Shown here one piece after another: positions 30,810-48,133 of a stretch of DNA of 64,000 nt. Each line of letters starts with the position of its first letter. Position 1 is the first letter of the stretch. The position numbers were made by a program, and so were the translations under genes. The notes under the pieces were generated by a model. It saw only the letters and a list, made by a program, of their open reading frames with translations, had not been told where the DNA came from and did no database searches. Source of the stretch: Clostridia bacterium (GTDB taxonomy: Bacteria; Bacillota; Clostridia; Oscillospirales; CAG-272); contig JAFQDK010000041.1 in NCBI GenBank assembly GCA_017399305.1, positions 9,504-73,503 on the forward strand, in the 5' to 3' direction.

Positions 30810-30929
30810 TTATGGTCTGTATATTGCTGACCAGCCGTCATCGGTAGTCTCTGTCGGCTTATCACCGCAAGCAGTAAAAGCAAACACAAGACTTAGTGCC
30901 ATGCACATAACAATTATTAATTTTTTCAT
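30810..30929 (-). CDS. Candidate 39-aa mini-lipoprotein, translationally coupled to the upstream gene
   Basis: My own translation: MKKLIIVMCMALSLVFAFTACGDKPTETTDDGWSAIYRP*. Signal peptide plus lipobox-like FTAC. The ATG overlaps the upstream TGA (TGATG). The terminator follows this ORF rather than the large gene. Confidence 0.45.
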   Translation of the reverse strand: MKKLIIVMCMALSLVFAFTACGDKPTETTDDGWSAIYRP

Positions 30930-33538
30930 CACTCAAGAACGATTGCAGGCCAACGGTTTGTTGTAAATGCGCTTACACCGGTGAGAGTATCATTGGTGGA
31001 GCCGCTGCCGTCCTGATTAGAAAGAGAAGGATTAACTACAAATGAAGTTGCGCCATCAAGACCTACAAGTGCCTTGGGAATAGCTACCTCGGTAACAACA
31101 CCCTCGTCCTTATCCTCATTGTTACCGGCTGTACCGAAAACCTTTACAACAGCATTGCCGCCGGTAACAGTGTTCTTAGCTGCGCCATTTTCAACATATG
31201 TGATAGAATCCACACCGTTAAGACTTACAACCACGCGGTAGTAGCTACTGGTGCCTGCACCGATACAAATAGTTGTTGTATCGCCCTCGGTGATATAGGT
31301 ATCAAGGCGGGAGATAAGGAAGTAAACATTATTCTTATCATGTGCTGTGCGGAGAGTGATCTGTGCCTGGGTTTCGCTACCTACAAAGAGTGCGTCTGTA
31401 TTTTCGGTCCACTCATTGGTATAACCGTCAACATTTACTGCAACCTTGGGCGCGTTTGTACGGTGGTTGAGGTATGAATAGTAAAGATTAATACCGCGGA
31501 GGTCGCCATTTTTGCAAGGATTAGCTGCAACGAGTTTGTGGCTATCAAGAACCTCAATAGAGCCCCATGAACCTGCAGAATCCTTAGCAGGACGGAATTC
31601 CTTGGAGTCAAGAACACTGCCGTCAGGGCTGACCATTCTTGCACGGAGAACCGCATTGATACCATATGTAAGAACTACCTCGCCCGACTCAAAACGACCT
31701 ACATACGGCGATGCTGCACCGGTTGGAATAACATCTTTATATGTTGTAGTAGGACCTTCTTCGGTGAGATCAAGGTGATCCCATTCGCCGCCATCTTTGC
31801 TTATCGCATATGAGATACGGAAGTCCTTATCAAGTCTCTGAACCTCAACTGCAAGAAGTGACTTACCATTATAAAGCTGAACTGCAGCAGGCATCTGACC
31901 GCCGAAATACGGAACTGCCTCGGTATACATAGGAGTACCGTCGGGATTTGTACCGTAAGGAACCTTGTCGCCGACATATTCCTGGTAAACGCGCTTGCCT
32001 ACATAGTGGCTCTCTTTTGTGGTTTCGGGCGACCATGTATAACCGTTATCATCAGAATAAATCATGGATGTACATGTGGAGCGCTTATCCGAGTCCATGC
32101 CGTAGATGTCAATATAAGCAATCGCGCAAGACCAGTAAACCTCTACTCTGCCGTCATCACGCTGGAAAATGAATGGCTCCCAAACCTGTCCCTTGGTGAG
32201 CTGTACTTCTTCCTGTACGACCTGAGAAGGATAAACCTTTTCTTCAGTGGTACTCCATACAACCTTATTATCCTCAGTAACCTTACCACGAGCCATAAAG
32301 ATACCGTTCATTTCTGCATAATCTGCATAACCGTAACCGGAACTAGGACGGATAGCATATACGCAGAGAATATCACCGTTATCAAGTACGCATGCATCCG
32401 CGTTTACCGCAAGATACTGGTCGTCTTTACCTGCAAGAGGTCCGTATGTATGAGTAAACTTCTTATCGTTGGTAGCTCCCCAGAAAACTTCAGGATTAGT
32501 CCATGTCTGTCCGTCATTGGAATATGCAACGTAGAGATGTCTACCAAACTGACCGTACATCCAGAACATGATGTAGAGGTCGTCCTTAACTTGCTTGATA
32601 CGGGGATACCATGCATTGTCATAACGTGTCTGACCTGTTGTAGAAGAAGTAAGCTCTACATTCTCTCTGAAGTTAATCTCAAGAGAAGATGTAGCGATAT
32701 CATCGTCTGCATGGTCGCCATTTGTGCTCTTCTGGTCGAGATCTTGAATAGCAACAAGCTCTGTTACAGGATTTTCGGGAACTACGGGTTCTGCAGTGTC
32801 GTCTTCACCGATGATATATCCCATTACCTCATTGAACTTATCAGCAGTGTAAAGTCCCTTGTCGAGAAGCTGAACTGCAATGATTTCGCCCTCTTTTACC
32901 TTTGCGCCAAGCGCATTGTAGCAGATTACAAATGCATCGCCACGGGTAAACTCAGCGTCGGGAGTTTCATCACCGATAAGACCAACCTCTTTTGCAAGTG
33001 CATAAGGATTGTTCCATACGAAGTCGCCCTCTGCGTCCTTGTAACCGAGGACACGAAGAATTGCGGTGAGGAATGCATAATCGGTCATACCGCTTACCGC
33101 ATCAAATTTTGTTGCACTTACACCTGCGGTAATCTTATTTACATAAGCATAAGAGATATACGGAACTGCCCATGCGGGAAGGTCAGTAAAAGGATGTGCA
33201 TTTGTCTCGGTTGTAGCCGCCTTCTCTGCACCGAGGAAACGAACTACCTGAGTAATTGACTCTGCTCTTGTAAGGCTGCCGTCAACATCGAAATTGATGC
33301 TTCCGTCAGCATTAGTGCCCTTACCTGCAAGAAGTCCGAGAGCATTAAGTGCCTTTGCCGCCTCTTCTGCGGGAATAGCATACTTATCAATAGGAGGTAC
33401 GCTTGCGTTGGGATTTGGCGCGATGAGCATGCCATCTTTTGCGTTTTCAAACAAATCCTTAGTTTCGCTTGCAAAAACCATCGGCATAACCGAAACAAGC
33501 ATGCATACCGCAATAACAAGGCAAATTATTCTTTTCAT
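30929..33538 (-). CDS. Secreted SLH-like repeats + Asp-box (sialidase-fold) propeller + CBM9-like module
   Basis: Signal peptide. SLH-like 'FTDLPAWAVPYISYAYVNKITAG'. Asp boxes 'SNDGQTW', 'SDDNGYTW', 'SKDGGEW'. C-terminal 'DGYTNEWTENTDALFVGS...VYFLISR'. Confidence 0.7.
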   Translation of the reverse strand: MKRIICLVIAVCMLVSVMPMVFASETKDLFENAKDGMLIAPNPNASVPPIDKYAIPAEEAAKALNALGLLAGKGTNADGSINFDVDGSLTRAESITQVVRFLGAEKAATTETNAHPFTDLPAWAVPYISYAYVNKITAGVSATKFDAVSGMTDYAFLTAILRVLGYKDAEGDFVWNNPYALAKEVGLIGDETPDAEFTRGDAFVICYNALGAKVKEGEIIAVQLLDKGLYTADKFNEVMGYIIGEDDTAEPVVPENPVTELVAIQDLDQKSTNGDHADDDIATSSLEINFRENVELTSSTTGQTRYDNAWYPRIKQVKDDLYIMFWMYGQFGRHLYVAYSNDGQTWTNPEVFWGATNDKKFTHTYGPLAGKDDQYLAVNADACVLDNGDILCVYAIRPSSGYGYADYAEMNGIFMARGKVTEDNKVVWSTTEEKVYPSQVVQEEVQLTKGQVWEPFIFQRDDGRVEVYWSCAIAYIDIYGMDSDKRSTCTSMIYSDDNGYTWSPETTKESHYVGKRVYQEYVGDKVPYGTNPDGTPMYTEAVPYFGGQMPAAVQLYNGKSLLAVEVQRLDKDFRISYAISKDGGEWDHLDLTEEGPTTTYKDVIPTGAASPYVGRFESGEVVLTYGINAVLRARMVSPDGSVLDSKEFRPAKDSAGSWGSIEVLDSHKLVAANPCKNGDLRGINLYYSYLNHRTNAPKVAVNVDGYTNEWTENTDALFVGSETQAQITLRTAHDKNNVYFLISRLDTYITEGDTTTICIGAGTSSYYRVVVSLNGVDSITYVENGAAKNTVTGGNAVVKVFGTAGNNEDKDEGVVTEVAIPKALVGLDGATSFVVNPSLSNQDGSGSTNDTLTGVSAFTTNRWPAIVLE

Positions 33539-33548
33539 AGATTTCTCC

Positions 33549-36065
33549 TTACTTAAGGTTTATTTTTATCCAGGTTGAAGTATCATTAACATCTATACCG
33601 TTGATACGGTCAGTAACATCTGCGCCTGCATCGTAAAGACCGGGACAAACGCTTATGCTGTCACCTGTGAGTCCGAGTGCGGCTCGGTCAAAGCAAAGTT
33701 CGTAAACTCTGCCGCCGGTCGCATTCTTTGTTCCGCCTGTAACACCGGCAGGAAGTGTGTAATCACCGTAACTGATAGTTGCATTGATATAACCGTCTGC
33801 AGTTGCGATGTATACAAAGTTTGTATCTTCCTTGGAATTAGACTTGTCGGTACGGTCAATTGCAACATAGATGTACTTATCGTCATATGCAAAACGGTAT
33901 GCCGCCTGAGCATCAGCAGTAAGACTGCCTACAAAGAGAGCATCTTTGATTTCCTTCCATTCCTGAAGATTACCGTCTGCAACCATATTCTTCTTTGTCG
34001 CGTCAATCGGGTGATTGAGGTGAACCTTACCAAGAACAGTAGTGTTGTGAAGAACCTCATTTCCATCAACTGTTTCGGGAACAACACCTTTATATCTCTT
34101 ATACGACATAGATACAAGTGCAACATGCGAACCTATCGGTGTAGCATGACTCCAGAAGCCACCGTCTGTATCTTTATCATTGTAGAAAATATTGGACTCA
34201 TAGGCAGTAGACATGTTGGTTCCGCGATTATTGAGAAGTCTGGCATAAAGCATACTGGAATTGTTATATGTAAGCAAAATCTCACCTGAGACAAATCTCA
34301 TAAGCGTGGGAGCCGCACCTCTGAATACATCGTTCGAGGTATTGGAAGGACCTGCCTCATCGATAGCAAGCTCATTCCATTCGCGTCCTGCATTTGAATA
34401 TGCTTTACTGATCATATGATAACTGCGATCAACTGATCTCGTCTCAGCAACAAGCATCATCTTGTCGCCCTGAGCAAGTTCGATAACACCGGGCATCTGT
34501 CCGTGTACAAACGGAACGCTCTTACCATTTATAGTAAGATTTCCTGCGGCATACTGATATACTCTCTTAGCCGCAAACGGTGCGGAAGTAACATTAGGTG
34601 TCCATGTATTTCCGCCGTCAGTGGAGGAAATCATCGCTACACCGCTTGAACGCATGCTATCCTGGAAGCCATACTTATAAAGCATAGGCGCGATGTGTGT
34701 AAAGTAAATCTCAACATTTCCGTCAGAACGTTGTAAAATCTCTGCCTCCCAGTTCTGACCGTGATAGATAGAAACAGGCTCAGACCACTTTATTGTTGTA
34801 CCGCTTACTGTTCCCTTCACAAGTTCGAGGGTGGAGAGTGCCGCATACTCTTTAAGTGCATAACCTGTGCAAGGACGGCGCGAATATACACAGAGAATAG
34901 TTCCGTCATCAAGCACACAGTGGTCTGCGGTCGTAGCGTAATATACATCTTCTGTTCCCTTAAGCGAACCGGAAGTATGCGTAAATGTGTTATTCGCGGC
35001 ATTGTATAGAACCTTTGGTGCTCCCCAATTTATACCGTCGGTACTTGTTACATAGTAAAGATGCATGCCCTCTTGAGCATAATTGAGCGTCATGAGATAA
35101 AGCTCATCATTTACTTTTGATATGCGGGGATAAAATGCATTCTGGTATCTTGCATGGTCGTTTTCATCAAGAGTTACCATAGAACTTCTGTCAAGCTCGA
35201 TATATGCATTGCCGCCGGCATTTGAATTATTTTTAGAGTCAGTGTTCAGATCGTAAATAGAAGTCTTTGTAGTATAGTTTGAACCTGTATAGGTGGAGAG
35301 CAATGCTGCCGCTGTTTCATCACCTGCTGCCGCCGCCTCGGTAGCAACTGCATATACACTATTGATAGCGCAGCCGTTTGCACTGCCGCTTCTCGAATAA
35401 TATACCGTGCGTTTAACACCGTTTGCATCCGCATAAGTAATATAAGGACGAACTGCAATCTCGTCTGCAAGAGATGCAACATCTACACCGAGTACGGTTA
35501 CTGCAAATGTAATAGTAGTAGTATCTTCAGCATATGTAAACACACCGGGAACTACCGCACCGCTTTTTACATTTGTGCCGCTCTGCTTTGTAAGCTTTTC
35601 AGTTGTGTCAACATTTATTGCCACAACAGCACCATAGCCAATGTCGGTTGCATGTTCATTTTTAGGAGTGAGAGTGCCGTTAAAGCCCTTACGGTTAAGA
35701 GGATTAAGCCCCTCAACTGTACTTCTCAGCTCTTTGTTGAACTTGACCTGGAATCTGATACCGTTTACTTCGGGGGCAAACTCTTCTACCGGTATCGAAA
35801 AACCGTAATTGCCCTTTTCAACAGTTGCACCGTAAACAGTGCCGCTATAGTTCTTATCTGCAGCTTTTGTTACATCAAGTGCCAATGCTGCCTCTTCGGT
35901 TGTAAACCAACCGCCAAAAAGTCCGCCGCCGGGTACAGTAAGGCTTGAAATATCACCTGACGCTGTTTCAACAGTTACCTTAACAGGAAGAGCTGCGGAC
36001 GAAACCACTGCAAACAGTGCCGCAGAAAGACATATTACTATAAAGAATCCTAAAATCTTTTTCAT
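33549..36065 (-). CDS. Secreted unknown N-terminal module + Asp-box (sialidase-fold) propeller + CBM9-like module
   Basis: Signal peptide. 'STDGINW', 'SSTDGGNTW'. 'DGNLQEWKEIKDALFVGS...YRFAYDDKYIYVAIDR'. Paralog of 36433-39039. Confidence 0.7.
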   Translation of the reverse strand: MKKILGFFIVICLSAALFAVVSSAALPVKVTVETASGDISSLTVPGGGLFGGWFTTEEAALALDVTKAADKNYSGTVYGATVEKGNYGFSIPVEEFAPEVNGIRFQVKFNKELRSTVEGLNPLNRKGFNGTLTPKNEHATDIGYGAVVAINVDTTEKLTKQSGTNVKSGAVVPGVFTYAEDTTTITFAVTVLGVDVASLADEIAVRPYITYADANGVKRTVYYSRSGSANGCAINSVYAVATEAAAAGDETAAALLSTYTGSNYTTKTSIYDLNTDSKNNSNAGGNAYIELDRSSMVTLDENDHARYQNAFYPRISKVNDELYLMTLNYAQEGMHLYYVTSTDGINWGAPKVLYNAANNTFTHTSGSLKGTEDVYYATTADHCVLDDGTILCVYSRRPCTGYALKEYAALSTLELVKGTVSGTTIKWSEPVSIYHGQNWEAEILQRSDGNVEIYFTHIAPMLYKYGFQDSMRSSGVAMISSTDGGNTWTPNVTSAPFAAKRVYQYAAGNLTINGKSVPFVHGQMPGVIELAQGDKMMLVAETRSVDRSYHMISKAYSNAGREWNELAIDEAGPSNTSNDVFRGAAPTLMRFVSGEILLTYNNSSMLYARLLNNRGTNMSTAYESNIFYNDKDTDGGFWSHATPIGSHVALVSMSYKRYKGVVPETVDGNEVLHNTTVLGKVHLNHPIDATKKNMVADGNLQEWKEIKDALFVGSLTADAQAAYRFAYDDKYIYVAIDRTDKSNSKEDTNFVYIATADGYINATISYGDYTLPAGVTGGTKNATGGRVYELCFDRAALGLTGDSISVCPGLYDAGADVTDRINGIDVNDTSTWIKINLK

Positions 36066-36082
36066 AAAACTGTCCTTCGCAC

Positions 36083-36418
36083 TTAGTCTACAAGCTTACC
36101 AAGTCCGACATCTTCACCAAGAACATGTCGGATAATAAGCAATACATCGGCAATATTAACTTTTCCGTCAGAGTTTGTGTCTATGCTGTCACGAAGCGAG
36201 CTTGTTTTTGTGCCTGCAACATACTTAATACTTGTCATAGCATCAAGCAAATTCACCTTACCGTCTCCGTTAGAGTCGCCTGCAATATGCTGTCCTATCG
36301 GAAACACAACCTCGTCAGACGAAAACTGTACATAGTTTTCCCCTTCATAAGCCATAGCAAAAACAGAGAAAGTGCAAAGCATTACAGCGCATAAAAGAAG
36401 CGAAACCGTTCTTTTCAT
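36083..36418 (-). CDS. Dockerin-only small secreted protein
   Basis: 111 aa. Signal peptide ('FSVFAMA'), then about 25 aa, then one dockerin with two Ca-binding loops: 'DSNGDGKVNLLD' and 'DTNSDGKVNIAD'. Confidence 0.75.
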   Translation of the reverse strand: MKRTVSLLLCAVMLCTFSVFAMAYEGENYVQFSSDEVVFPIGQHIAGDSNGDGKVNLLDAMTSIKYVAGTKTSSLRDSIDTNSDGKVNIADVLLIIRHVLGEDVGLGKLVD

Positions 36419-36432
36419 GTTTTTCTCCTTAT

Positions 36433-39039
36433 TTATTTAAGATTTATCTTAAGCCATGTAGAAGTATCGCTAAGGGTTGTGCCGTTGATGCGGTCATCAA
36501 CGCCTGTTGCAACATCGGTAAATCCGGGATTTACACGAATGTAGTCGCCTGTGAGACCAAGTGCCGCGCGGTCAAAGCAAAGCTCATATACTCTGCCACC
36601 TGCCGCATTCTTTGTACCACCGGTAACGCCGGCAGGAAGTGTGTAGTCGCCATAAGAAATCTCGGCTTTTACACTGCCTGTGGAAGTAGCAACAAGAACA
36701 TAGTTTGTGTCTTCCTTATTGTTGGACTTATCTGTACGGTCAATAGCAACATAGATATAGTCATCATCATATGCAAAGCGGTATGTCGCCTGAACGTCAG
36801 CAGTAAGACTTCCTACAAAGAGTGCATCGGTAATGTTTTTCCATTCCTGAAGATTGCCGTCTGCAACCATGTTCTTCTTTGTCGCATTGATAGTATGATT
36901 AAGTCTTACCTTACCGATAACTGTAGTGTTATGAAGAACATCACTTGTAGTACCGTCTTCATTTTCTACTGTTTCAGGAGCTGCACCCTGATATTTCTTA
37001 TATGACATAGCGAGGATGGCAGTATGAGAATCGACCGGTGCAGATGCACTCCAGAAGCCGCTGTCTGTTTCGCTTGTCGTATAGAAAGGATTAAGTTCAT
37101 ATGCAGTTGCAATATCGCTGCCTGTCTTGTTGAGCAGGCGTGCATACATCATATTGGAACCTACTCTGTTTGCGTTATATGTAAGGAGAAGCTCGCCGGA
37201 ATCAAATTTCATAAGAGTAGGCGCTGCGCCCTTGAAATTATCTTCCTTGACGTCCGAGGGACCTGCTTCGTCTATACCGAGTTCTTTCCATACTCCATTT
37301 GCACCCGAATAAGCCGCACTTATCATATGGTAACTACGCGAGGTTGTTCTTGTCTCAGCAACAACCATAAGTTTTCCGTTTGAGAGTTCTACTACACCGG
37401 GCATCTGACCGTGATAGAAATTAACTTTGTTCCCGTTCTCAAGAGTAAACTGACCTGCATTATACTGATAAATACGCTTGCCGGCATAGTTGTTTGTACC
37501 CTCTGCATCGGTCTTGGGGGTCCATGTATAACCGCCGTCAGTGGAAGATATCATTGCAACGCCGCTTGAACGCATTGTCTCATCAAACCCGTACAAGTGG
37601 ATCATCGGCGCAGAATGAGACCAGTAGATCTCAATATTTCCGTTTGAACGCTGAATTATTTCAGGCTCCCAGCTGTGTCCATAGTAAACAGGTGTGGGTT
37701 GGCCCCATTTGACGGTAGTTCCACTCACGGTTCCTCTGACGACCTCAAGAGTGTGAAGTCCGGTATACTCGTTCGAACCGTAGCCCTTTACTGCACGGCG
37801 GGAATATACGCAAAGTATAGTACCGTCATTAAGTACGCAATGGTCAGCAGTTGCCGCAAAGAATTGGTCGGAGGTACCTGCAAGAGAACCGGTAGTATAT
37901 GTATTTGCATTGACCGCCGAACTTGATGCATATAATAGCTTAGGATCCGCCCATGTTTTACCGTCTGTACTTGTTGTATAATATAAGTGCTGACCTGTCT
38001 GATTATAGTTGAAGGTCATGAGGTAAAGGTTGTCCTTAACCTTTGTAATACGGGGATAAAATGCATCCTGATATCTGTAATGGTCGTTTTCGTCAAGCGT
38101 TGTAAGAGTGGTTCTGTCAAGCTCAACATATGCATTGTCATTATCCGCGCTTCCGGCCACAGAAGACAGGTTGAATGAAGCGATAGTAGACTTTGTAGTA
38201 TAGTTAGTACCTGTATATGTGGAAATCAGATTACTTGCCGCTGCCTTTTCATTTTCGGTAGCGTTTTCGTCAGCTACAACAAGGTTTGCAATCTCATAAA
38301 GGCTTGCCGCATATGCATTGTTGGCAGAGCCGGTTTCGGTATAGTAAACAGTATGCTCATTGCCGTTTGCATCCGCATATGTAACATATGGGCGCGCCGC
38401 TATCTTATCAGCGACAGCCGCAGTTTCAATACCGATAACAGTTGCAGTATAGGTGATGCTTGCATCATCCTCAGAATATACGTATACACCGGGAACGCAC
38501 ATACCGTCTGTTACTGTTGTACCGTCAAGCTTTGTAAGTTTTCCCTCGGTTTCAACATCAATGGCAAGCACCATGCCGTAACCGATGCCAGTCTTATACT
38601 CATTCATAGGATTGAACGTGCCGCCCTTGCCCTTGCAATTAAGCGCATTCAGTTTTTCAATCACACTTATAAGCGCCTTATCGATCTTGGCAAGAAAACG
38701 CACGCCATATGGCTCATCGGTACGCATCTGCACTCCTATGAGCTGAAGATCATCAGCATCAAGTGCAACGACCGCACCGTATACCGTTCCGTCGTATCCG
38801 TTGGATGCAGCTTTTGCAATATCAAGTGACTTTGCAGCAGCTTCACTTGTGAACCAGCCGCAGAAAAGCCCGTCCTCACTCACGGTGAGCGACGAAAGCT
38901 TTGTTGAAGCCGAAGATGTCGCAGTAACAACCGTGATGTCACCCATATTATTAACAGGGAGGTCGGTTGCAAAAGCTGTAATCGATGTCATAAGCATAAA
39001 AATGACAAGCAAAAACGACACTATTCTTATGTTTTTCAT
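36433..39039 (-). CDS. Secreted unknown N-terminal module + Asp-box (sialidase-fold) propeller + CBM9-like module
   Basis: Signal peptide. 'STDGKTW', 'SSTDGGYTW'. 'DGNLQEWKNITDALFVGS...YRFAYDDDYIYVAIDR'. First gene of the operon. Confidence 0.7.
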   Translation of the reverse strand: MKNIRIVSFLLVIFMLMTSITAFATDLPVNNMGDITVVTATSSASTKLSSLTVSEDGLFCGWFTSEAAAKSLDIAKAASNGYDGTVYGAVVALDADDLQLIGVQMRTDEPYGVRFLAKIDKALISVIEKLNALNCKGKGGTFNPMNEYKTGIGYGMVLAIDVETEGKLTKLDGTTVTDGMCVPGVYVYSEDDASITYTATVIGIETAAVADKIAARPYVTYADANGNEHTVYYTETGSANNAYAASLYEIANLVVADENATENEKAAASNLISTYTGTNYTTKSTIASFNLSSVAGSADNDNAYVELDRTTLTTLDENDHYRYQDAFYPRITKVKDNLYLMTFNYNQTGQHLYYTTSTDGKTWADPKLLYASSSAVNANTYTTGSLAGTSDQFFAATADHCVLNDGTILCVYSRRAVKGYGSNEYTGLHTLEVVRGTVSGTTVKWGQPTPVYYGHSWEPEIIQRSNGNIEIYWSHSAPMIHLYGFDETMRSSGVAMISSTDGGYTWTPKTDAEGTNNYAGKRIYQYNAGQFTLENGNKVNFYHGQMPGVVELSNGKLMVVAETRTTSRSYHMISAAYSGANGVWKELGIDEAGPSDVKEDNFKGAAPTLMKFDSGELLLTYNANRVGSNMMYARLLNKTGSDIATAYELNPFYTTSETDSGFWSASAPVDSHTAILAMSYKKYQGAAPETVENEDGTTSDVLHNTTVIGKVRLNHTINATKKNMVADGNLQEWKNITDALFVGSLTADVQATYRFAYDDDYIYVAIDRTDKSNNKEDTNYVLVATSTGSVKAEISYGDYTLPAGVTGGTKNAAGGRVYELCFDRAALGLTGDYIRVNPGFTDVATGVDDRINGTTLSDTSTWLKINLK

Positions 39040-40952: not shown

Positions 40953-41036
40953 TTTAGCACGAGGAATTTTGCTTGTTTTTTCGACTAAAATAATGAAGCG
41001 TTACCAAAAGTTGACGTGGCGAAACGGAGGTACAAT

Positions 41037-42386
41037 ATGAAAACTTGCAAACTCAAAAGCACAGCTTTAATAGCTTTGATGTTGGTAGTAGCACTGATCG
41101 GTACTGTAACCACAACGCCGAACGCACAAACAACAATCAATGCCAATGCACTTGCCGTTGCCGAATATCCCGAAATGGCAAAATATCCCGAGCACGAAAT
41201 GCAGATAGGGTTCGATAATAGATACGATGAATGGTGGGCTGATCAGAAAAAGCAACGCTCTTTCTACGGTGCTGGAGAGGGGCTTGACGGCTTCTTTACA
41301 AAAACCTTTGCTGAGTTTCTTTCAGACAGTGAAAACAAAAACGCTGTTTATTCGCCGCTTAATGTTTACATGGCACTTGCCATGCTCGCCGAAACAACAG
41401 AGGGTGAAAGCCGTGCGCAAATACTTGACTTGCTCGATGCGGACAATATCGAAGCACTGCGTAAGCAGGCCAATTTCATTTGGAATGCAAACTACTCGGA
41501 TGACGGTGCTGTGACAAGTATTCTCGCAAGCTCGTTGTGGTTAAACAAGGACATAACATTCAAGCAGTCCACGCTTAAACTGCTCGCTGATAAGTATTAT
41601 GCTTCATCTTACAGCGGAGAAATGGGTTCTGCAGAGTTGAACAGTTCTATAAAAGATTGGATGAACGAGCAAACAGGCGGTCTTCTCAAAGATTACATAT
41701 CGGGAATCGAACTGTCTCCGGAAACTATCATGGCGCTTGTAACCACGATATATTTTCAGGCGAAGTGGGAGAACGAATTCTCCGAGAGAAAAACAGTTGA
41801 CGATATATTCCATACCGCAAACGGAGATATAACCTGTAAGTTTATGAATACCACAGAAACTTACGGTAACTATTATTGGAGCGACACTTTCTCTGCAACC
41901 AGACTTTCTCTGCAAAACAGCGGTAATATGTGGTTTATACTACCCGATGCCAATATAAGCATTGACGAACTGCTGAAAAATGAAGCGGCACTTTCCCTTA
42001 TGTGCCAGGATACAAGCAATATAAACCGCAAGTCGCTTAAAGTAAACATTTCACTTCCAAAGTTTGATGTAAGTTCCAAGATGGATCTCACCAAGGGATT
42101 GAACAAGCTGGGAATCACAAATTGCTTTAGCGCAAGCAGTGCAGACTTCTCTCCCCTGCTTGAAACCGAACAACCAATCTGGCTTGACAAGGTTGAACAC
42201 GGCGCACGAGTCGTCATAGACGAAGAAGGCGTAACCGCGGCAGCATATACGGAAATGGTGATGTGCGGCGCCGCGATGCCTCCCGAAGAGGAGGTAGACT
42301 TTGTTCTTGACCGTCCTTTCATTTTCGTAATCACCGGCAGCGACGGATTACCTTTGTTTGCAGGGGTAGTAAACAATCCGGCATAA
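41037..42386 (+). CDS. Serpin-family protease inhibitor, exported
   Basis: Hydrophobic N-terminus. The serpin hinge and reactive-centre loop 'IDEEGVTAAAYTEMVMCGAAMPPEEEVDFVLDRPFIFVI'. The ATG at 41037 has a GGAGG RBS. Confidence 0.85.
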   Translation: MKTCKLKSTALIALMLVVALIGTVTTTPNAQTTINANALAVAEYPEMAKYPEHEMQIGFDNRYDEWWADQKKQRSFYGAGEGLDGFFTKTFAEFLSDSENKNAVYSPLNVYMALAMLAETTEGESRAQILDLLDADNIEALRKQANFIWNANYSDDGAVTSILASSLWLNKDITFKQSTLKLLADKYYASSYSGEMGSAELNSSIKDWMNEQTGGLLKDYISGIELSPETIMALVTTIYFQAKWENEFSERKTVDDIFHTANGDITCKFMNTTETYGNYYWSDTFSATRLSLQNSGNMWFILPDANISIDELLKNEAALSLMCQDTSNINRKSLKVNISLPKFDVSSKMDLTKGLNKLGITNCFSASSADFSPLLETEQPIWLDKVEHGARVVIDEEGVTAAAYTEMVMCGAAMPPEEEVDFVLDRPFIFVITGSDGLPLFAGVVNNPA

Positions 42387-42427: not shown

Positions 42428-42862
42428 ATGAAATCAAGTAATATAGAAAAACAGCAGATAATCAATGCGGCACTTAATGAGTACGGGGTTATAACCGAAG
42501 AACTATCCTATCAGGAATGCGTTGAAAAGCTAAGAAGTTATTTAAAAATTGAAGATAAAGAAACTTTGACGAAGAAATTTGGTGAGTATGCTATCGCTGC
42601 AGAAAACTACGAGTGCATAACAGAAGATGAAATTGAAGAAGGAAGAAAAGTTTTATCTTTGCTAAACAAAGGAAAACTGTTTTCAAAATCAAATATATAC
42701 GTCAGAACATTTGTAACCGTAAAGCTCGGAAACAAATCTATGTTTTCACTTGTCAGTCCAAACCAAATCTTATGGGAATTATCAGGTGTTTCAAGAGATA
42801 TGGCTGAGGACATTGCAAAACAAATATCTGAAAAACTCGGTATTGCACTTAAAATATATTAA
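42428..42862 (+). CDS. Hypothetical acidic cytoplasmic protein (144 aa)
   Basis: AGGAG RBS, located 41 nt after the serpin stop with no intervening hairpin. No motif recognised. Confidence 0.5.
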   Translation: MKSSNIEKQQIINAALNEYGVITEELSYQECVEKLRSYLKIEDKETLTKKFGEYAIAAENYECITEDEIEEGRKVLSLLNKGKLFSKSNIYVRTFVTVKLGNKSMFSLVSPNQILWELSGVSRDMAEDIAKQISEKLGIALKIY

Positions 42863-42867
42863 TTATA

Positions 42868-42902
42868 AAATCCCCCTTGTTCTATCTGAACAAGGGGGAT
42901 TT
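42868..42902. terminator. Bidirectional terminator
   Basis: AAATCCCCCTTGTT-ctatctg-AACAAGGGGGATTT. Confidence 0.8.
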
Positions 42903-42909
42903 GTTAGTC

Positions 42910-44832
42910 TTATCTTTTAACTATCTTAAAACGTTTGCCGACGGCATTCCATTTATCACCGAGTATATCCGGAATTCGCGCGATAAGCTCGCGGTCATAT
43001 ACTGTGGAATCCGGCAATCCAAGTTTTTCAGACCGCTCAGGCAATTCCTCATATGCACAAATGTATGGATGCAACTGCAAAACGGGACAATTGTGACGGC
43101 CTTTACTGATATCAGATGCTTTATATGCATTGACCTGATCAATAGTCGCAGTTTCCCAGCCCTCGGATTCAAGAAAAGCCATCCAGCGATTGTGCTCTGA
43201 ATACGAAAGCATATCCAGCTTTTCTTTTTCAAGATAGTCCTTTAACTCTACCTCCTCGCCATCTGCATCGGCATCTGTATAATCAAGTCCAAGCAATGCC
43301 AATTTATACCTGATGTGCATTGCATTTGCTCTGTTTGAACGCTTGTTCACTTCAAATATCTTGTATCTTCCAAGCGCCGCCTGCACATCAATATCTGCTT
43401 CACTGAATATATCCTCATAAACAAGATGCACGTTTTTTGAGAGCTTCTCGATATCGGAATCAACAAGATTGTTGTATGTATAAATATCTCCGTAATAACC
43501 AAACGGCGTTATATCATAACTCGTGCGGCGTTCGGGATTAGCTTCGGAAGTCTGAAGATTTCTCACCATTTTAGCTTTATCCGAATACCGGATATATGCG
43601 TATATCGGAGGAGCATTTTTATACTCGCTATCAAATTTATAAAACATTCGGCGAAGTAGAATGGCTATATTTACGGTTTCCTCATCATTCTCACGGTTGA
43701 CCACAATATAGTTTGCGTCGCGGCAATGCTTGTCAACGGTATCTGCAAAATCCTTATCGCCTATACATGAATAAAACTCCACATCGTATCTATCCGTAAA
43801 GAGACCGGGAAACCAGAGTTTCATATTTTCAATCTCTTTTTCTATGTCGATGCCAACAACCCTGACTTTGAGTTTGTATCCGGCAAGTTGACCGCACCAA
43901 AGTGCCGCACGCAAAAATGCCTTATCGAGCTTATCCAAGCCGCAAAGCAGAATAGATATCTCACTGTTTGTTGCATGTTTATACAACGGATACTCATTCA
44001 ACAAATCATACGCTATCGTTTCTATCTCATTGACAACATGAATGTCAATATTGCCTTTATCCGAAGAATCAATCATAATATCAACATTGTCGCCATCTGC
44101 AAACAGAAAAACATGAATCTTCTGCTGAACCTCTGTCGGAAGATCTCTTGAATCGTTTATAAGATCAAGAGTGTGATTGAGGTTTATATCAGAATCACCT
44201 GTAATACAAAAATAATAAATCTCTTTGTCTGCAACATGCTTTATCTGAATAGACTCTATGCTCTTTTCATAAACAATGCAGTTAAGTTCCTGTTGCAGAA
44301 CATTTTTTTCTGCAACGCCAGAAATATCAGAAAACACGATATCGCATTTCCCTATAGTTTCGCGGATGTTACGGGCAAGTGCCTCAGACTTGTTATTTAT
44401 CTCAGAAAACACAAATATGGGGCGTCGTCTGTGATTAACCACCGACAAACGGACTGTTGCAAGAAAATGCAACACCAAAGTAATCGCCGACACTGCGGAA
44501 ACCGCAGGCAAAGCGATATGAACAAATCCCAGAAGCGCTATGTATATCTTCTCAAAAAGTCCAAATCCGATACTTGCAGTTATAAAATCATACCAATCGA
44601 GGCATCCGGACTCAAGTGAGATTACCTGCAAAATGTTATAAAGGCTGCCCCATACAGCAGCTATAGGCTCATATCCAATAAAAAACGGCGGTATGTATAA
44701 TATATACGTTGAGACTGTAAACAAAACAAATATATAGAATACTTTTTTACTGCCATGTTTTGTGTCAACCGAAACCATAGCAGTGACAACAAAAAGCATT
44801 ACAGCCGCAATAGCACATATATACCAAATCAT
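42910..44832 (-). CDS. Membrane protein with two Rossmann-like modules and a C-terminal RyR domain
   Basis: About 4 N-terminal TM helices. 'RPIFVFSEINNKSEALARNI' and 'ISILLCGLDKLDKAF'. C-terminal 'SEHNRWMAFLESEGW...LHPYICAYEELPE...YDRELIARIPDIL'. Confidence 0.65.
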   Translation of the reverse strand: MIWYICAIAAVMLFVVTAMVSVDTKHGSKKVFYIFVLFTVSTYILYIPPFFIGYEPIAAVWGSLYNILQVISLESGCLDWYDFITASIGFGLFEKIYIALLGFVHIALPAVSAVSAITLVLHFLATVRLSVVNHRRRPIFVFSEINNKSEALARNIRETIGKCDIVFSDISGVAEKNVLQQELNCIVYEKSIESIQIKHVADKEIYYFCITGDSDINLNHTLDLINDSRDLPTEVQQKIHVFLFADGDNVDIMIDSSDKGNIDIHVVNEIETIAYDLLNEYPLYKHATNSEISILLCGLDKLDKAFLRAALWCGQLAGYKLKVRVVGIDIEKEIENMKLWFPGLFTDRYDVEFYSCIGDKDFADTVDKHCRDANYIVVNRENDEETVNIAILLRRMFYKFDSEYKNAPPIYAYIRYSDKAKMVRNLQTSEANPERRTSYDITPFGYYGDIYTYNNLVDSDIEKLSKNVHLVYEDIFSEADIDVQAALGRYKIFEVNKRSNRANAMHIRYKLALLGLDYTDADADGEEVELKDYLEKEKLDMLSYSEHNRWMAFLESEGWETATIDQVNAYKASDISKGRHNCPVLQLHPYICAYEELPERSEKLGLPDSTVYDRELIARIPDILGDKWNAVGKRFKIVKR

Positions 44833-44859
44833 TGTTTTTCTCCTTATTTTACGGAGTTA

Positions 44860-44957: not shown

Positions 44958-47900
44958 TCAGTAAAGTCTGAGTGCTGCAGCGACGGTCTGCTCTGCTGTG
45001 CACATGGTATGCGGCGAGAATTTATCATCGCCCATTCCAAGCATGATTCCTGCAGCGCGCATATTGTATACACTTTCCTTTGCCCAGTCGGCAATAGCGC
45101 TGTCATCAGCGTATGTATAGCCGTCCGGGGTAACGCTCTTTCCGCCAAGTCGGTAAACTCTGTCAAGGATAGTTGCAACCTCTTCGCGGGTAATATACGC
45201 GTCGGGTGCAAACTTTCCGTTGCCCTTGCCGTAGATAACGCCGAGGGTGCTCAGCGCCTTAACCGCTTCGCTATCGGTATCGGTAAAGTTTATTGCTTGA
45301 GCGGTTGTACTTGCGAGTGCGGTTTTAACAGCAGGAAGATTATACACTATCTCGCAGAAGCCCTCGCGTGTGATATTCTTACGATAAAGTGGCGGATTCT
45401 CATATTCGATAAGCCCTTTATCAAGTGCGATGAGCACTGTTTCACCTGCCCAATCCGACGGATTGTTGTAAACACACTTTACAAGGCGTTTGCCGAGCGG
45501 TCCCGCCTTGCCGAGATTTGTGTATACAAACGCAAGTTTGTTTTCAAAATCTCCGCCATAGCACCACACATTGTTTGACTCAAGAACGATATCGCCGTCT
45601 TCATTGATATACGATGTATCGCCGTATCTACCGTAGATGATATTCTGTACCACAGGTGCCATGCCGCCGCTGAATTTATCCTGAACATAGTAGCCGTGCG
45701 GAAGTGTGATCTTCACCTTGCCGGTATTATCAATATATCCCTCAAAGCCGCGCTTTGATATGCCGACATAACCGTTATCGCCAATATCGGTTACATGAGT
45801 ACAGCCGGACGCTAAAACTCTGCCGCTTGCGTGCACCACAGCAAAAAGTCCGCCACGGTATACTTTGAACATATCGTCACCGAGATATGTTATATCGCCT
45901 ATTGCCGGCTCTATCACGGTTTCACCTTTGATATTTACAACGCCGAGTTCGTTCATTTCATCGCCGGAAACGATGAGATAATTCTCATTAACGATATTCT
46001 GTATATATCTTTCGCCAAGATCCAATAAAAGCTCAAAGTTCTTGTTATATATCTTCGAGCCAACTATATAATATCCGGTATAATCGGTATAAACATCAGG
46101 CTTTGAGGCAAACGGCTCTTTGTTGAGCTCGTTTCCGTCAGCGTCAACAACATACCAGCCGCCGTCACGCTTTGCGGCAAACTCCTTGTCAAGGAACCAC
46201 ACAAGTTCATAAGGTGTTCTTGAGCCTAAAATATAGTATTTACCGTCATTTTCTTTGCAGTAATACTGACCGATATTTCCAAGATAGAACTCTGCAAGGC
46301 CTGCAGTTTCTTCAAGCGACCAATCATAAACTATTCTTTCACATGCAGGAGAACGCGAAACAATCATTACAGAATTATCATAGACTATAGCAATTTCCTG
46401 CTCACCCTCAATAATCTGCTTATACTCGCCCTCTTTGAGCGTCATCATAACATCGTTTTCGGTATCGCGTATCTCTACGGTATCACCCTCGTTAAAAATA
46501 CAAGTGCCGTAAACCAAAACTTTATTATCGGTTGGTCTGCCTTTAAGGTCGAAATAACGCTCGGTGCCATCCTTCATACTGAAGACATAGCCGCCGTCAC
46601 GCTTAGCAATCGTGCTGACCTCGCCGTAGAAATCAATATACTCAAATTCCCAGAGCGGTACTGACTTTTCAGGTATGTACTTCACCACACCGTAACGATT
46701 ACCGTCAGTCACGGTGAAAAACCCCTCATGCTCGGTACTGCCGAACGAAGAATAGCTTGTTGTCACCTTGTCGGAAAGAGTGAATACGACCTTGCCGGTA
46801 GTATCTACAAACTTGCCGTTTTCGATATAAGCAATTCCGTTGTTAAATCCCTGCGACCAGTTTTCAGGATTGAAAACAACTTTGCCGTCAGTGTCAATTA
46901 CTTCATGTGTCCATACACCGTCAATACAGCTTGATGCAAAGGCATATCCCTCAGCATAGTTTGAAACCATACGGTATTTGAACTCAGTTATCTCGTTGCC
47001 GAAAAGGTCATAGTATCCTGAATGGTCATACGACTTTTGTGCCTTGATAATACCGTCTGAGATATCATAAATATTGGTATGCTCTATAGGCAAAACAAGA
47101 TTGCCGCTAAAATCGACAAGGCCGTAAAGTTTCGGATACTCATCTTTATCCTCACGTGTATTGTCTATCGACACCTTAACGAGTGAATAGTCATAGAATA
47201 CGTTAGCTATCTCATACTCGCACGGCTCCATCATAACGGTTTTGCCGTCGGATGCAACAACTCCGTATTTATTGCCAATCTGTACCTTGTAGCACTTAAG
47301 ATACCCGTTGTCGGTTATCGGCTCAATGTAGTCATACGCAAAAGGCGTAAGAATATTACCGTCATAGTCAATGATGCCATGCTTGCCGTCCTTAACAGCT
47401 ACAACAGAATAGCTGTCAGCAGTAAAAGCATATATCTTATCATACTCAGGCTTTATTGCAACATTGAAGCCATGATCAAGTGCACCGAACTTGCCATTTT
47501 CCTCAAATACAAGTCTGCTGCTGTCAAAGGTCAGTCCGTATCCGGCATTTTTATCCGGAACAAATCCGTCATACGGAAGAACTTTTAGCCGGTTTCCCTG
47601 ATAATCACAGATTGCGAACTCACCTTCATAATAGAAAATAGGTCTGCCGTCATTATTATTTCCAAGGTCTATAAAAACAAAATTGTTTGAAAGAGAGATA
47701 AACTCTTTCCCAAAAGTGCCGACCACCTGACCGTTGTAATTAATAATTTCATAAGTGTCACCGAGTTTACCGACACCCATACCATGATCATTGAAGTAAA
47801 GGCTGTCATAATCCTTGGTGAGCTTGTCACCTTTGAGGTCATATGCAGCTACCTTTTCATTTTCATCAAGAGCAATAATACGGCGACCTGTCACATAAAA

Positions 47901-48017
47901 CGAATCAAACTCTATTCTGCCGTATTCTGTAGGAAGTATATATTCAAATGTACCGACGGCACTTATTCCAAATGTCAAAACAAGGCATGCTGCCATAAAC
48001 ACTATAAATTTTCTCAT
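44958..48017 (-). CDS. WG(KWG)-repeat beta-propeller-like protein with C-terminal SLH-like wall anchors
   Basis: Signal peptide from the ATG at 48017 (GGAGG RBS). Many 'G(K/R)xG(V/I)(V/I)Dx.G..(V/I).P.(Y/F)D' units. C-terminal 'FTDTDSEAVKALSTLGVIYGKGNGKFAP...TREE'. Confidence 0.7.
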   Translation of the reverse strand: MRKFIVFMAACLVLTFGISAVGTFEYILPTEYGRIEFDSFYVTGRRIIALDENEKVAAYDLKGDKLTKDYDSLYFNDHGMGVGKLGDTYEIINYNGQVVGTFGKEFISLSNNFVFIDLGNNNDGRPIFYYEGEFAICDYQGNRLKVLPYDGFVPDKNAGYGLTFDSSRLVFEENGKFGALDHGFNVAIKPEYDKIYAFTADSYSVVAVKDGKHGIIDYDGNILTPFAYDYIEPITDNGYLKCYKVQIGNKYGVVASDGKTVMMEPCEYEIANVFYDYSLVKVSIDNTREDKDEYPKLYGLVDFSGNLVLPIEHTNIYDISDGIIKAQKSYDHSGYYDLFGNEITEFKYRMVSNYAEGYAFASSCIDGVWTHEVIDTDGKVVFNPENWSQGFNNGIAYIENGKFVDTTGKVVFTLSDKVTTSYSSFGSTEHEGFFTVTDGNRYGVVKYIPEKSVPLWEFEYIDFYGEVSTIAKRDGGYVFSMKDGTERYFDLKGRPTDNKVLVYGTCIFNEGDTVEIRDTENDVMMTLKEGEYKQIIEGEQEIAIVYDNSVMIVSRSPACERIVYDWSLEETAGLAEFYLGNIGQYYCKENDGKYYILGSRTPYELVWFLDKEFAAKRDGGWYVVDADGNELNKEPFASKPDVYTDYTGYYIVGSKIYNKNFELLLDLGERYIQNIVNENYLIVSGDEMNELGVVNIKGETVIEPAIGDITYLGDDMFKVYRGGLFAVVHASGRVLASGCTHVTDIGDNGYVGISKRGFEGYIDNTGKVKITLPHGYYVQDKFSGGMAPVVQNIIYGRYGDTSYINEDGDIVLESNNVWCYGGDFENKLAFVYTNLGKAGPLGKRLVKCVYNNPSDWAGETVLIALDKGLIEYENPPLYRKNITREGFCEIVYNLPAVKTALASTTAQAINFTDTDSEAVKALSTLGVIYGKGNGKFAPDAYITREEVATILDRVYRLGGKSVTPDGYTYADDSAIADWAKESVYNMRAAGIMLGMGDDKFSPHTMCTAEQTVAAALRLY

Positions 48018-48133
48018 ATAAAATCCTCCTTTTGCTTTTTCTATATTAATTTTACCATATAAAGCTACGTTTGGCAACAGGTATTATTATCTCCGCAAAT
48101 GCATATACATTTATCAAAAAACGGAGGATAGCC

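Follow-up and report, generated by a model that had tools for sequence, protein, structure and literature searches.

What might a bacterial membrane protein do with a ligand-binding domain of the ryanodine-receptor (RyR) type? This question is raised by a 64,000-nucleotide stretch of the genome of a Clostridia bacterium (contig JAFQDK010000041.1; hereafter the window, whose numbering we use for all of its genes). At 42910..44832 on the minus strand, the window encodes a protein of 640 amino acids (plus the stop codon), which is a solitary member of a family with transmembrane (TM), RCK-like, and RyR parts. An original prediction, made from the sequence alone, had called it a ligand-sensing membrane protein of an undescribed type, related to channels, signalling, or conflict. 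That description is supported by the RyR module, by the likeness of the middle of the protein to channel gating rings, by the linkage of its relatives to TIR genes, and by the lack of a curated family. We give an even chance to a more specific reading, which is that the protein would be an undescribed, ligand-gated membrane effector of bacterial immunity, driven by a TIR-derived nucleotide.

Domain architecture of the protein

By profile-profile comparison and modelled fold, residues 452-640 are a tandem RyR module like Repeat12 of the animal receptors, with a degenerate repeat A (residues 452-532; 43237..43479, minus strand) and a well-preserved repeat B (residues 533-640; 42913..43236, minus strand). 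We used hhalign to compare both repeats to a reference of eight canonical RyR repeats (Bt 3NRT, RyR2 repeats 1-4, two stand-alone bacterial RyR proteins, and one extra domain). With distant relatives included, residues 533-632 match the canonical repeats with 97.3% probability (E = 2.5e-11, 63 columns). With the close clade alone, the probability is 73.7% (E = 2.9e-5). Residues 452-532 match with 67% probability (E = 5.1e-5) across 62 columns, which is the full length of a repeat.

We also made a separate model of residues 452-640 (pLDDT 86.7) and compared it to the PDB with Foldseek. All of the top 50 matches are RyR repeat domains, led by human RyR3 Repeat12 in complex with ADP and dantrolene (E = 1.8e-3, TM-score 0.50, 218 columns). 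Against RyR3 Repeat12, about 215 columns align, which covers both repeats; against the single-repeat protein 3NRT from Bacteroides, about 100 columns align.

The original prediction had put a RyR domain in the last 100 or so residues and had staked it on an HMM match. Taken literally, it failed there: hmmscan with Pfam's RyR model (PF02026; gathering score 27.4 bits) finds no match in the window protein even at E <= 1. The domain is RyR on the profile-profile and fold evidence, along with weak matches within the clade, but it occupies about 190 residues in two repeats instead of about 100. Among 20 close homologues, the C-terminal pieces of 13 give such weak, sub-threshold hits to Pfam's RyR (E = 0.0011 at best); the corresponding region of P0184, a distant relative, is also matched (E = 0.0065). 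A tblastn search with a stand-alone canonical RyR protein matches the window at 43024-43260 (E = 0.034). Sequence-profile searches of the PDB returned nothing for the full-length profile and one chance match (E = 0.63) for the C-terminal profile, and a word-indexed search with the C-terminal profile returned only fragments from the same clade. In a viral structure library, the top match was a phage RyR protein, which was not significant (E = 0.57). Some relatives of 920-990 amino acids (P0267, P0268, and P0232) add a canonical C-terminal RyR domain to the divergent tandem module. The strong match in P0267 (Pfam E = 8.5e-16, residues 848-920) sits in this extra domain and not in the homologous region, so we dropped it as transitive proof.

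Repeat A keeps the motif LxKNVHxxY (N467, H469, and Y472 are invariant) and lacks GW and HP motifs. Between these two motifs, repeat B carries an insert of 16 residues, AYKASDISKGRHNCPV, that is specific to the clade; within the insert, S576, G578, R579, H580, and N581 are invariant (the string S-x-G-R-H-N). The predicted ligand pocket lies in repeat B and comprises H547, W550, H588, and D613. All four are invariant among 39 aligned clade sequences, and hhalign pairs them with the H, W, HP, and YD positions that canonical RyR repeats conserve. By shared motif, rather than by alignment of the phage sequences, they are equivalent to H75, W78, H100, and D117 of the phage protein RyDEP and to H129, W132, H154, and D171 of RyR Tad. 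Because these four residues are invariant and align with the canonical motif positions, the pocket is intact as judged from its sequence, and we predict that it binds a nucleotide.

Which nucleotide might this be? The original prediction knew of no assigned function for RyR domains in prokaryotes. That view has been superseded by two preprints from 2026, in which phage or prokaryotic RyR domains bind or cleave isomers of cyclic ADP-ribose (cADPR) (PMC13232231; 10.64898/2026.06.04.730250). The four ligand residues of RyDEP are stated to be conserved across PF02026 and RyR3 Repeat12, and relatives of RyDEP bind cADPR-isomer signals at nanomolar affinity (PMC13232231). RyR Tad, from a Pectobacterium phage, binds 3'cADPR (43 nM), 2'cADPR, and canonical cADPR via H129/W132, K147/H154, and K170/D171 (10.64898/2026.06.04.730250). 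Both phage proteins share the RyR fold and the ligand residues with the window protein, and their proven ligands (2'cADPR, 3'cADPR, and cADPR) are products of TIR enzymes. Unlike them, the window protein is a membrane protein of the host, carries its tandem repeat as a fusion, and is a predicted receiver of signals; the phage proteins are homodimers, small and soluble, that block immunity as sponges or glycosidases. In the literature that we searched, the binding of TIR signals by RyR domains, as reported in 2026, is limited to small phage anti-immunity proteins, and there is no host RyR receiver.

Repeat12 of animals (human RyR3 848-1055; PDB 9L9B and 6UHH) also has two RyR repeats per chain, which form a pseudo-dimeric nucleotide-binding module. 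It shares the pocket positions (H-x-x-W, HP, and D) with the window protein, and Repeat12-type domains are the only kind of fold match. Also, the module of the window protein is attached to a cation-channel-like protein. Unlike Repeat12, the window protein has a degenerate repeat A and a 16-residue insert in repeat B, and it falls below the Pfam threshold. Its module lies C-terminal to an RCK-type ring on a chain of 640 residues, not inside a Ca2+-release channel of 5,000 residues.

In the full-length AlphaFold2 (AF2) model, which was built on 39 homologues (pLDDT 91.9, pTM 0.84), residues 137-451 bear a moderate resemblance to the gating rings that tandem RCK modules form in Slo1 and CASTOR. 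The top Foldseek matches of the full model in the PDB are Slo1/BK, Slo2.2, and the LjCASTOR gating ring (E from 5e-4 to 5e-3, probability 1.0, TMq 0.32-0.36). The first Rossmann-like module (residues 137-290; 43963..44424, minus strand) is RCK-like by AF2 and Foldseek and has no glycine-rich nucleotide motif. The second (residues 291-451; 43480..43962, minus strand) is TrkA_N/RCK-like, by AF2 and by TrkA_N matches in relatives. The family consensus for the second module includes SVLIVGxGxxG; in the window protein, the GxGxxG motif is degenerate (LLCGLDKLDKAF) and G298 is invariant. The original prediction had read two beta-alpha-beta starts in this region, and both are correct by AF2 secondary structure (strands 139-142 and 291-297, followed by helices 147-160 and 301-313, respectively).

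Pfam's TrkA_N (PF02254) does not match the window protein or its close clade. Of 63 distant, full-length relatives, 14 do have a match (E = 1e-9 at best), and in the three relatives that we inspected the match is at about residues 297-431, which by position is the second module. Like Slo1/BK, Slo2.2, LjCASTOR/POLLUX, and MthK, the window protein has a membrane domain directly followed by two Rossmann-type modules, which here are RCK-like. Unlike them, it lacks a K+ filter and any recognisable Ca2+ bowl, its membrane part consists of three helices and an acidic loop, and it carries the additional RyR module. We found no match at the sequence level between the window protein and the tandem-RCK channels.

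The membrane domain (residues 1-135; 44428..44832, minus strand; from hydropathy and AF2) has three strongly hydrophobic segments by the Kyte-Doolittle scale, at 1-25, 30-53, and about 90-132. AF2 places helices at 2-22 (TM1), 29-53 (TM2, kinked at the invariant P48), 56-71, 81-88, and 92-134. The last of these is the third membrane helix: it is hydrophobic at about 92-115 and runs unbroken from the membrane into the first Rossmann module. The original prediction was right about the hydrophobic N terminus, but its count of about four hydrophobic helices becomes three TM helices plus a less hydrophobic helix-loop-helix. Given the basic loops at 23-29 and 128-137 and the acidic segment at 54-91, the positive-inside rule predicts an N-out topology, with the 56-88 loop facing outward and everything after residue 135 in the cytoplasm. 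Y97, H105, P109, and A116 are invariant in the close clade, and the conserved polar or small residues of the domain include D74-A75-D76, H105, P109, S112, A113, A116, and T118. The conservation of such residues argues that the domain would be more than an anchor.

Residues 56-88 (44569..44667, minus strand) are a putative re-entrant pore loop, as read from DSSP of the AF2 model: helix 56-71, which is less hydrophobic, is followed by the polar and acidic loop 72-80 and by helix 81-88. With the long helix after it, this order fits the S5-P1-filter-P2-S6 arrangement of bacterial sodium channels. Loop residues D74, A75, and D76 are 90-97% conserved in the close clade, where the loop has the form S/T-x-D-A-D; in the window protein, loop 72-80 is SLESGCLDW. 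By eye, LQVISLESG of the window protein resembles FQVMTLESW of NavAb, which is a lead only, as the alignment score is not clearly above those of shuffled sequences.

Family and linkage to TIR genes

At 45-50% identity, we found 175 full-length homologues of the window protein; all are hypothetical proteins, from Oscillospiraceae, Acutalibacteraceae, Christensenellaceae, and related metagenome-assembled genomes. An exhaustive HMMER search found 3,797 representative clusters at E <= 1e-3 and 2,104 at E <= 1e-10, and most of these proteins have 600-680 amino acids. Scans of the window protein against Pfam, NCBIfam, and PADLOC returned nothing, and this large family is unnamed in all three. The literature that we searched contains no description of a TM-RCK-RyR protein or of a TIR-RyR effector pairing.

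A survey of the gene neighbourhoods of homologues, which the original prediction had proposed, did reveal recurrent partners, namely TIR genes and stand-alone RyR genes. For the close clade, we called and clustered the open reading frames (ORFs) in 31 non-redundant loci. Half of these loci contain a conserved cluster of six genes on the same strand, with gaps of 3-90 bp. In order, the cluster encodes a Tubulin_2 (FtsZl1) protein of ~1,140 amino acids, a protein of 675 amino acids, a membrane protein of 1,450 amino acids that has a zinc ribbon and an HExxH motif, the homologue of the window protein, a TIR_2/ThsB_TIR protein with BspA-type LRRs, and a CitMHS permease. An example is L037 61-14739, and others are in L018, L026, L029, and L001, among more. 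In L037, the Tubulin_2 protein has 1,141 amino acids, the second protein has 678 amino acids with C-terminal TM helices, and the third is a multi-TM protein of 1,452 amino acids. In 15 of the 31 loci (all 15 full-length cases), the start of the TIR-LRR gene lies -4 to +20 bp beyond the stop codon of the family member, and the TIR-LRR proteins keep an invariant glutamate of the catalytic type (C-G-M-E).

Our distant sample was nine relatives at 21-30% identity, of which the uninformative ones are on contigs of less than 6 kb. TIR genes of other architectures are present in five of the nine loci: TIR with a beta-propeller, two large TIR_2 proteins, TIR-STING, TIR-WD40, and TIR_2. A stand-alone RyR gene (about 95 amino acids, PF02026) abuts the family member in five of the nine as well, with gaps of -4 to 18 bp (L048 2470-2751, L049 206-502, L052 5673-5996, L053 2156-2455, and L054 5204-5488). 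Two of these RyR genes were scanned again and gave Pfam E-values of 2.5e-38 and 3.5e-36. Two of the gene orders are stand-alone RyR, family member, a protein of 583 amino acids, and TIR-WD40; and stand-alone RyR, family member, and TIR_2. With respect to the membrane protein, the stand-alone RyR proteins might serve as partners, as buffers, or as regulators that degrade the signal. The linkage to TIR genes, which holds across non-orthologous enzymes and deep divergence, is the strongest clue to the function of the family.

The TIR-STING gene (L051 487-1599; CAP12-PCTIR_TIR E = 4.5e-15, prok_STING E = 1e-21) lies 16 bp 5' of the distant member P0184, which suggests that an NADase activated by cyclic dinucleotides is coupled to the membrane protein. 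Proteins of 583-585 amino acids without a Pfam match are encoded directly 3' of two distant members (L052 8010-9761 and L047 8092-9849); they share 46.5% identity, and in L052 the gene sits between the family member and the TIR-WD40 gene.

The cluster of the close homologues extends the FtsZl1/vWA operons that Makarova and Koonin described in 2010 (PMC2875224). Both have Tubulin_2 at their head along with large membrane proteins. In contrast, the 2010 paper reports no TIR, RCK, or RyR components, and the window is without the whole cluster. Another gene order is found in L017, L022, L025, and L027 (for instance, L027 8408-11092): the family member, a TM protein of 850-895 amino acids, Tubulin_2, and a protein of 700 amino acids. 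Read by eye, the protein of 850-895 amino acids has an N-terminal DxSxS that is vWA/MIDAS-like (it has no Pfam match), and a vWA-like protein in a variant of the cluster is another likeness to the FtsZl1/vWA operons.

Candidate mechanism and rival explanations

If the window protein is an effector driven by a TIR-derived nucleotide, then its cytoplasmic tandem RyR module (residues 452-640) would be the sensor and, by homology and fold, would supply the binding pocket. The ligand would be an NAD-derived nucleotide, probably a cADPR isomer or ADP-ribose (ADPR). The two RCK-like modules (residues 137-451), whose fold is seen in the model, would relay the binding and, in an oligomer, could form a gating ring under the membrane. 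The ring would then act on the long inner helix of the three-helix domain, which, with the re-entrant loop and a conserved acidic residue, would provide an ion path. Once open, this path would depolarise or poison the cell. The pore is putative and is the weakest step of the mechanism. For most relatives, the presumed source of the signal is a TIR enzyme that is encoded in the same operon and carries a repeat sensor as a fusion (LRR, beta-propeller, or STING); here the linkage is seen and the biochemistry is presumed. The TIR enzyme and the membrane protein would make up a Thoeris-like pair of sensor and effector, with the stand-alone RyR protein as a buffer or a partner. As for the window copy, it might answer a signal made elsewhere in the genome, or it might have been co-opted to an endogenous adenine nucleotide.

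In Thoeris types II, V, and X, as in the relatives of the window protein, a TIR gene adjoins a gene for a membrane protein with a nucleotide-binding domain, and signal-activated membrane damage is predicted (10.64898/2025.12.03.692087). By analogy, the window protein would work like a Thoeris membrane effector, yet it is none of the described ones, which have Macro, DUF2270, or a 208-amino-acid Ion_trans_2 channel (10.64898/2025.12.03.692087). The relatives also differ from Thoeris in that their TIR domains are fused to LRRs or a beta-propeller and that the close clade belongs to a six-gene FtsZl1 cluster, and the window copy has no TIR gene. The available portions of the text and supplementary tables of the systematic TIR survey contain no mention of RyR, TrkA, RCK, LRR, or tubulin. 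We rejected the possibility that the window protein is the type X effector ThsK: the effector on the Vibrio scaffold is an Ion_trans_2 protein of 208 amino acids (24.5 bits), and its BLASTP comparison to the window protein gives E = 68. In this published type X pair (L039 4358-5495), the effector has a filter-like motif, TLTYGGF, and ends 4 bp 5' of a ThsB-type TIR gene; the locus also has a gene that resembles DNA methyltransferases.

Several observations weigh against a TIR-driven effector. Across the 64-kb window, we found no TIR gene, stand-alone RyR gene, or gene of the cluster, using tblastn with the cluster proteins, TIR domains, and RyR as well as six-frame HMM searches, and the neighbours are ordinary chromosomal genes (YajC, PBP, a serpin, an SLH protein, and ABC transporters). 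Since ATP and ADP are also ligands of RyR3 Repeat12, that of the window protein need not be TIR-derived. The cluster in the close relatives is not a simple two-gene Thoeris system: two of its products are giant membrane proteins and another is an FtsZ-like GTPase, and it may not be for defence. PADLOC has no model for the window protein or for most of the cluster partners, apart from weak TIR matches. The matches to the RCK fold are moderate (Foldseek E of about 1e-3), and SAHH, which has a double-Rossmann fold, equals the channel rings by Foldseek E-value, with TMq 0.17-0.20. As to the pore, the window protein is the sole member of the clade to have ESG (with E74) in place of DAD at 74-76. 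In hhalign, the loop is in register with the P1 helix and the TLESWS filter of NavAb, with a score of 13.8 that was matched by 4 of 100 shuffles. Comparison of the pore with those of KcsA and MthK gave no signal.

Could the family instead have a role in homeostasis? RCK/TrkA_N (PF02254) domains classically regulate K+ transport, and by fold the RyR module comes closest to RyR3 Repeat12 bound to ADP or AMP-PCP. The protein might be a housekeeping cation (K+-type) channel or regulator, in which the RCK ring and the RyR module sense the energy state (ATP, ADP, or NAD(H)) and the linkage to TIR genes is a secondary recruitment. This would suit the window copy, which is solitary among ordinary genes of the chromosome, and the scatter of solitary copies over the tree of the clade. 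We consider it unlikely. The 56-88 loop has no TVGYG-like K+ selectivity signature, GxGxxG is degenerate in the clade, and the patchy distribution and atypical composition of the gene would be unusual for a core homeostatic channel. Also, the recurrent linkage to non-orthologous TIR genes and to stand-alone RyR genes, at 21-50% identity, is hard to obtain by chance.

Two other explanations keep the nucleotide and give the membrane domain another role. An N-terminal TM bundle and a C-terminal ligand domain, encoded beside a TIR gene, is the common layout of the known Thoeris and CBASS membrane effectors (10.64898/2025.12.03.692087), and homology of the pore loop is unproven. The protein might thus be a non-selective membrane disruptor: the ligand would drive the formation of higher-order oligomers whose N-terminal helices perforate the membrane, as with the TM effectors in CBASS and in types II and V of Thoeris. 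We think that this is quite unlikely, given that lysis by oligomerisation has no need for two ordered modules that resemble a gating ring, that the long helix continues from the membrane into the first RCK module as it would for mechanical gating, and that the loop motif is conserved. Alternatively, the TM helices might be an anchor for an enzyme, either a RyDEP-like cADPR glycosidase (self-limiting or anti-signalling) or an NAD(P)-dependent enzyme. The equivalents of the catalytic dyad of RyDEP, H547 and D613, are invariant; the Rossmann modules also match SAHH and malic enzyme in Foldseek; and there are weak matches to NAD(P)-binding families among the relatives. An enzyme is nevertheless very improbable to us: most RyR-domain proteins with the same residues bind their ligands and do not cleave them (PMC13232231), the glycine-rich dinucleotide motif is degenerate in the clade, the best matches by TM-score are channel gating rings and not enzymes, and the conserved membrane domain speaks against a mere anchor.

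Returning to the TIR-driven effector, we also suggest a broader version of it, which is tentative and which we would sooner doubt than accept. The family would be a prokaryotic channel that is gated by cADPR (or an isomer) via a Repeat12-type sensor and is driven by TIR enzymes of the same operon. It would be the bacterial counterpart, and possibly the source, of the cADPR-ryanodine receptor axis of animals, which has long been debated; and in Clostridia, it would be part of a new six-gene system for conflict or membrane remodelling that has an FtsZ-like GTPase. If the protein is a TIR-driven effector at all, it would add a new class of effector to TIR/Thoeris immunity in gut Clostridia, and it would offer a tractable bacterial model for whether and how cADPR acts on Repeat12 of ryanodine receptors. 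The solitary, divergent copy in the window would be a natural test case of an effector without its cognate TIR enzyme.

The window copy and its surroundings

The ORF of the original prediction (42910-44832, minus strand, 640 amino acids) is present, with both a Shine-Dalgarno sequence and a strong terminator. The Shine-Dalgarno sequence, AAGGAG (44840..44845, minus strand; read from the sequence), is 7 nt 5' of the ATG. The terminator is a bidirectional intrinsic hairpin at 42868..42902 with a perfect stem of 15 bp and a loop of 5 nt; it lies 8 nt from the end of the gene and serves both this gene and a convergent ORF of 144 amino acids. Nine metagenome contigs carry the identical protein with the same neighbours, from which we conclude that the gene is real and belongs to a Clostridial genome of the gut or rumen.

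As the original prediction had judged by eye, the gene and the convergent ORF are more AT-rich than their flanks. The GC content of the gene is 0.398, against 0.439 +/- 0.016 in segments of the same size (the 1st percentile), and that of the convergent ORF is 0.326. In a neighbour-joining tree, the window protein is on its own long branch, and the solitary copies are scattered among the cluster-linked ones. The original prediction had proposed horizontal acquisition. The low GC content and the solitary position, away from the usual cluster, do suggest it, but around 42.3-45.0 kb we found no flanking direct repeats (only the terminator hairpin) and no mobility genes. The window copy is an intact orphan that was probably relocated and was possibly acquired horizontally.

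The convergent ORF (42428-42862, plus strand) has the lowest GC content of the neighbourhood and a Shine-Dalgarno-like site. Ribosomal protein L16 is a sub-threshold match to it, at E = 2e-5 in Pfam (25 bits, where the cutoff is 27.9) and at E = 2.9e-6 with TIGR01164. We rejected it as a conserved partner of the membrane protein because the two co-occur only in contigs of the same species and not at the loci of other family members.

The rest of the neighbourhood is of the cellulosome type and is rich in cell-surface proteins, and it is unrelated to the RyR protein. A bacterial serpin is encoded at 41016-42386 on the plus strand (Pfam E = 5.6e-71), and a wall protein of 1,039 amino acids with SLH and WG repeats is encoded at 44958-48077 on the minus strand. 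Further away, at 30929-39039 on the minus strand, is a run of genes for proteins of 838-869 amino acids, along with a dockerin gene.

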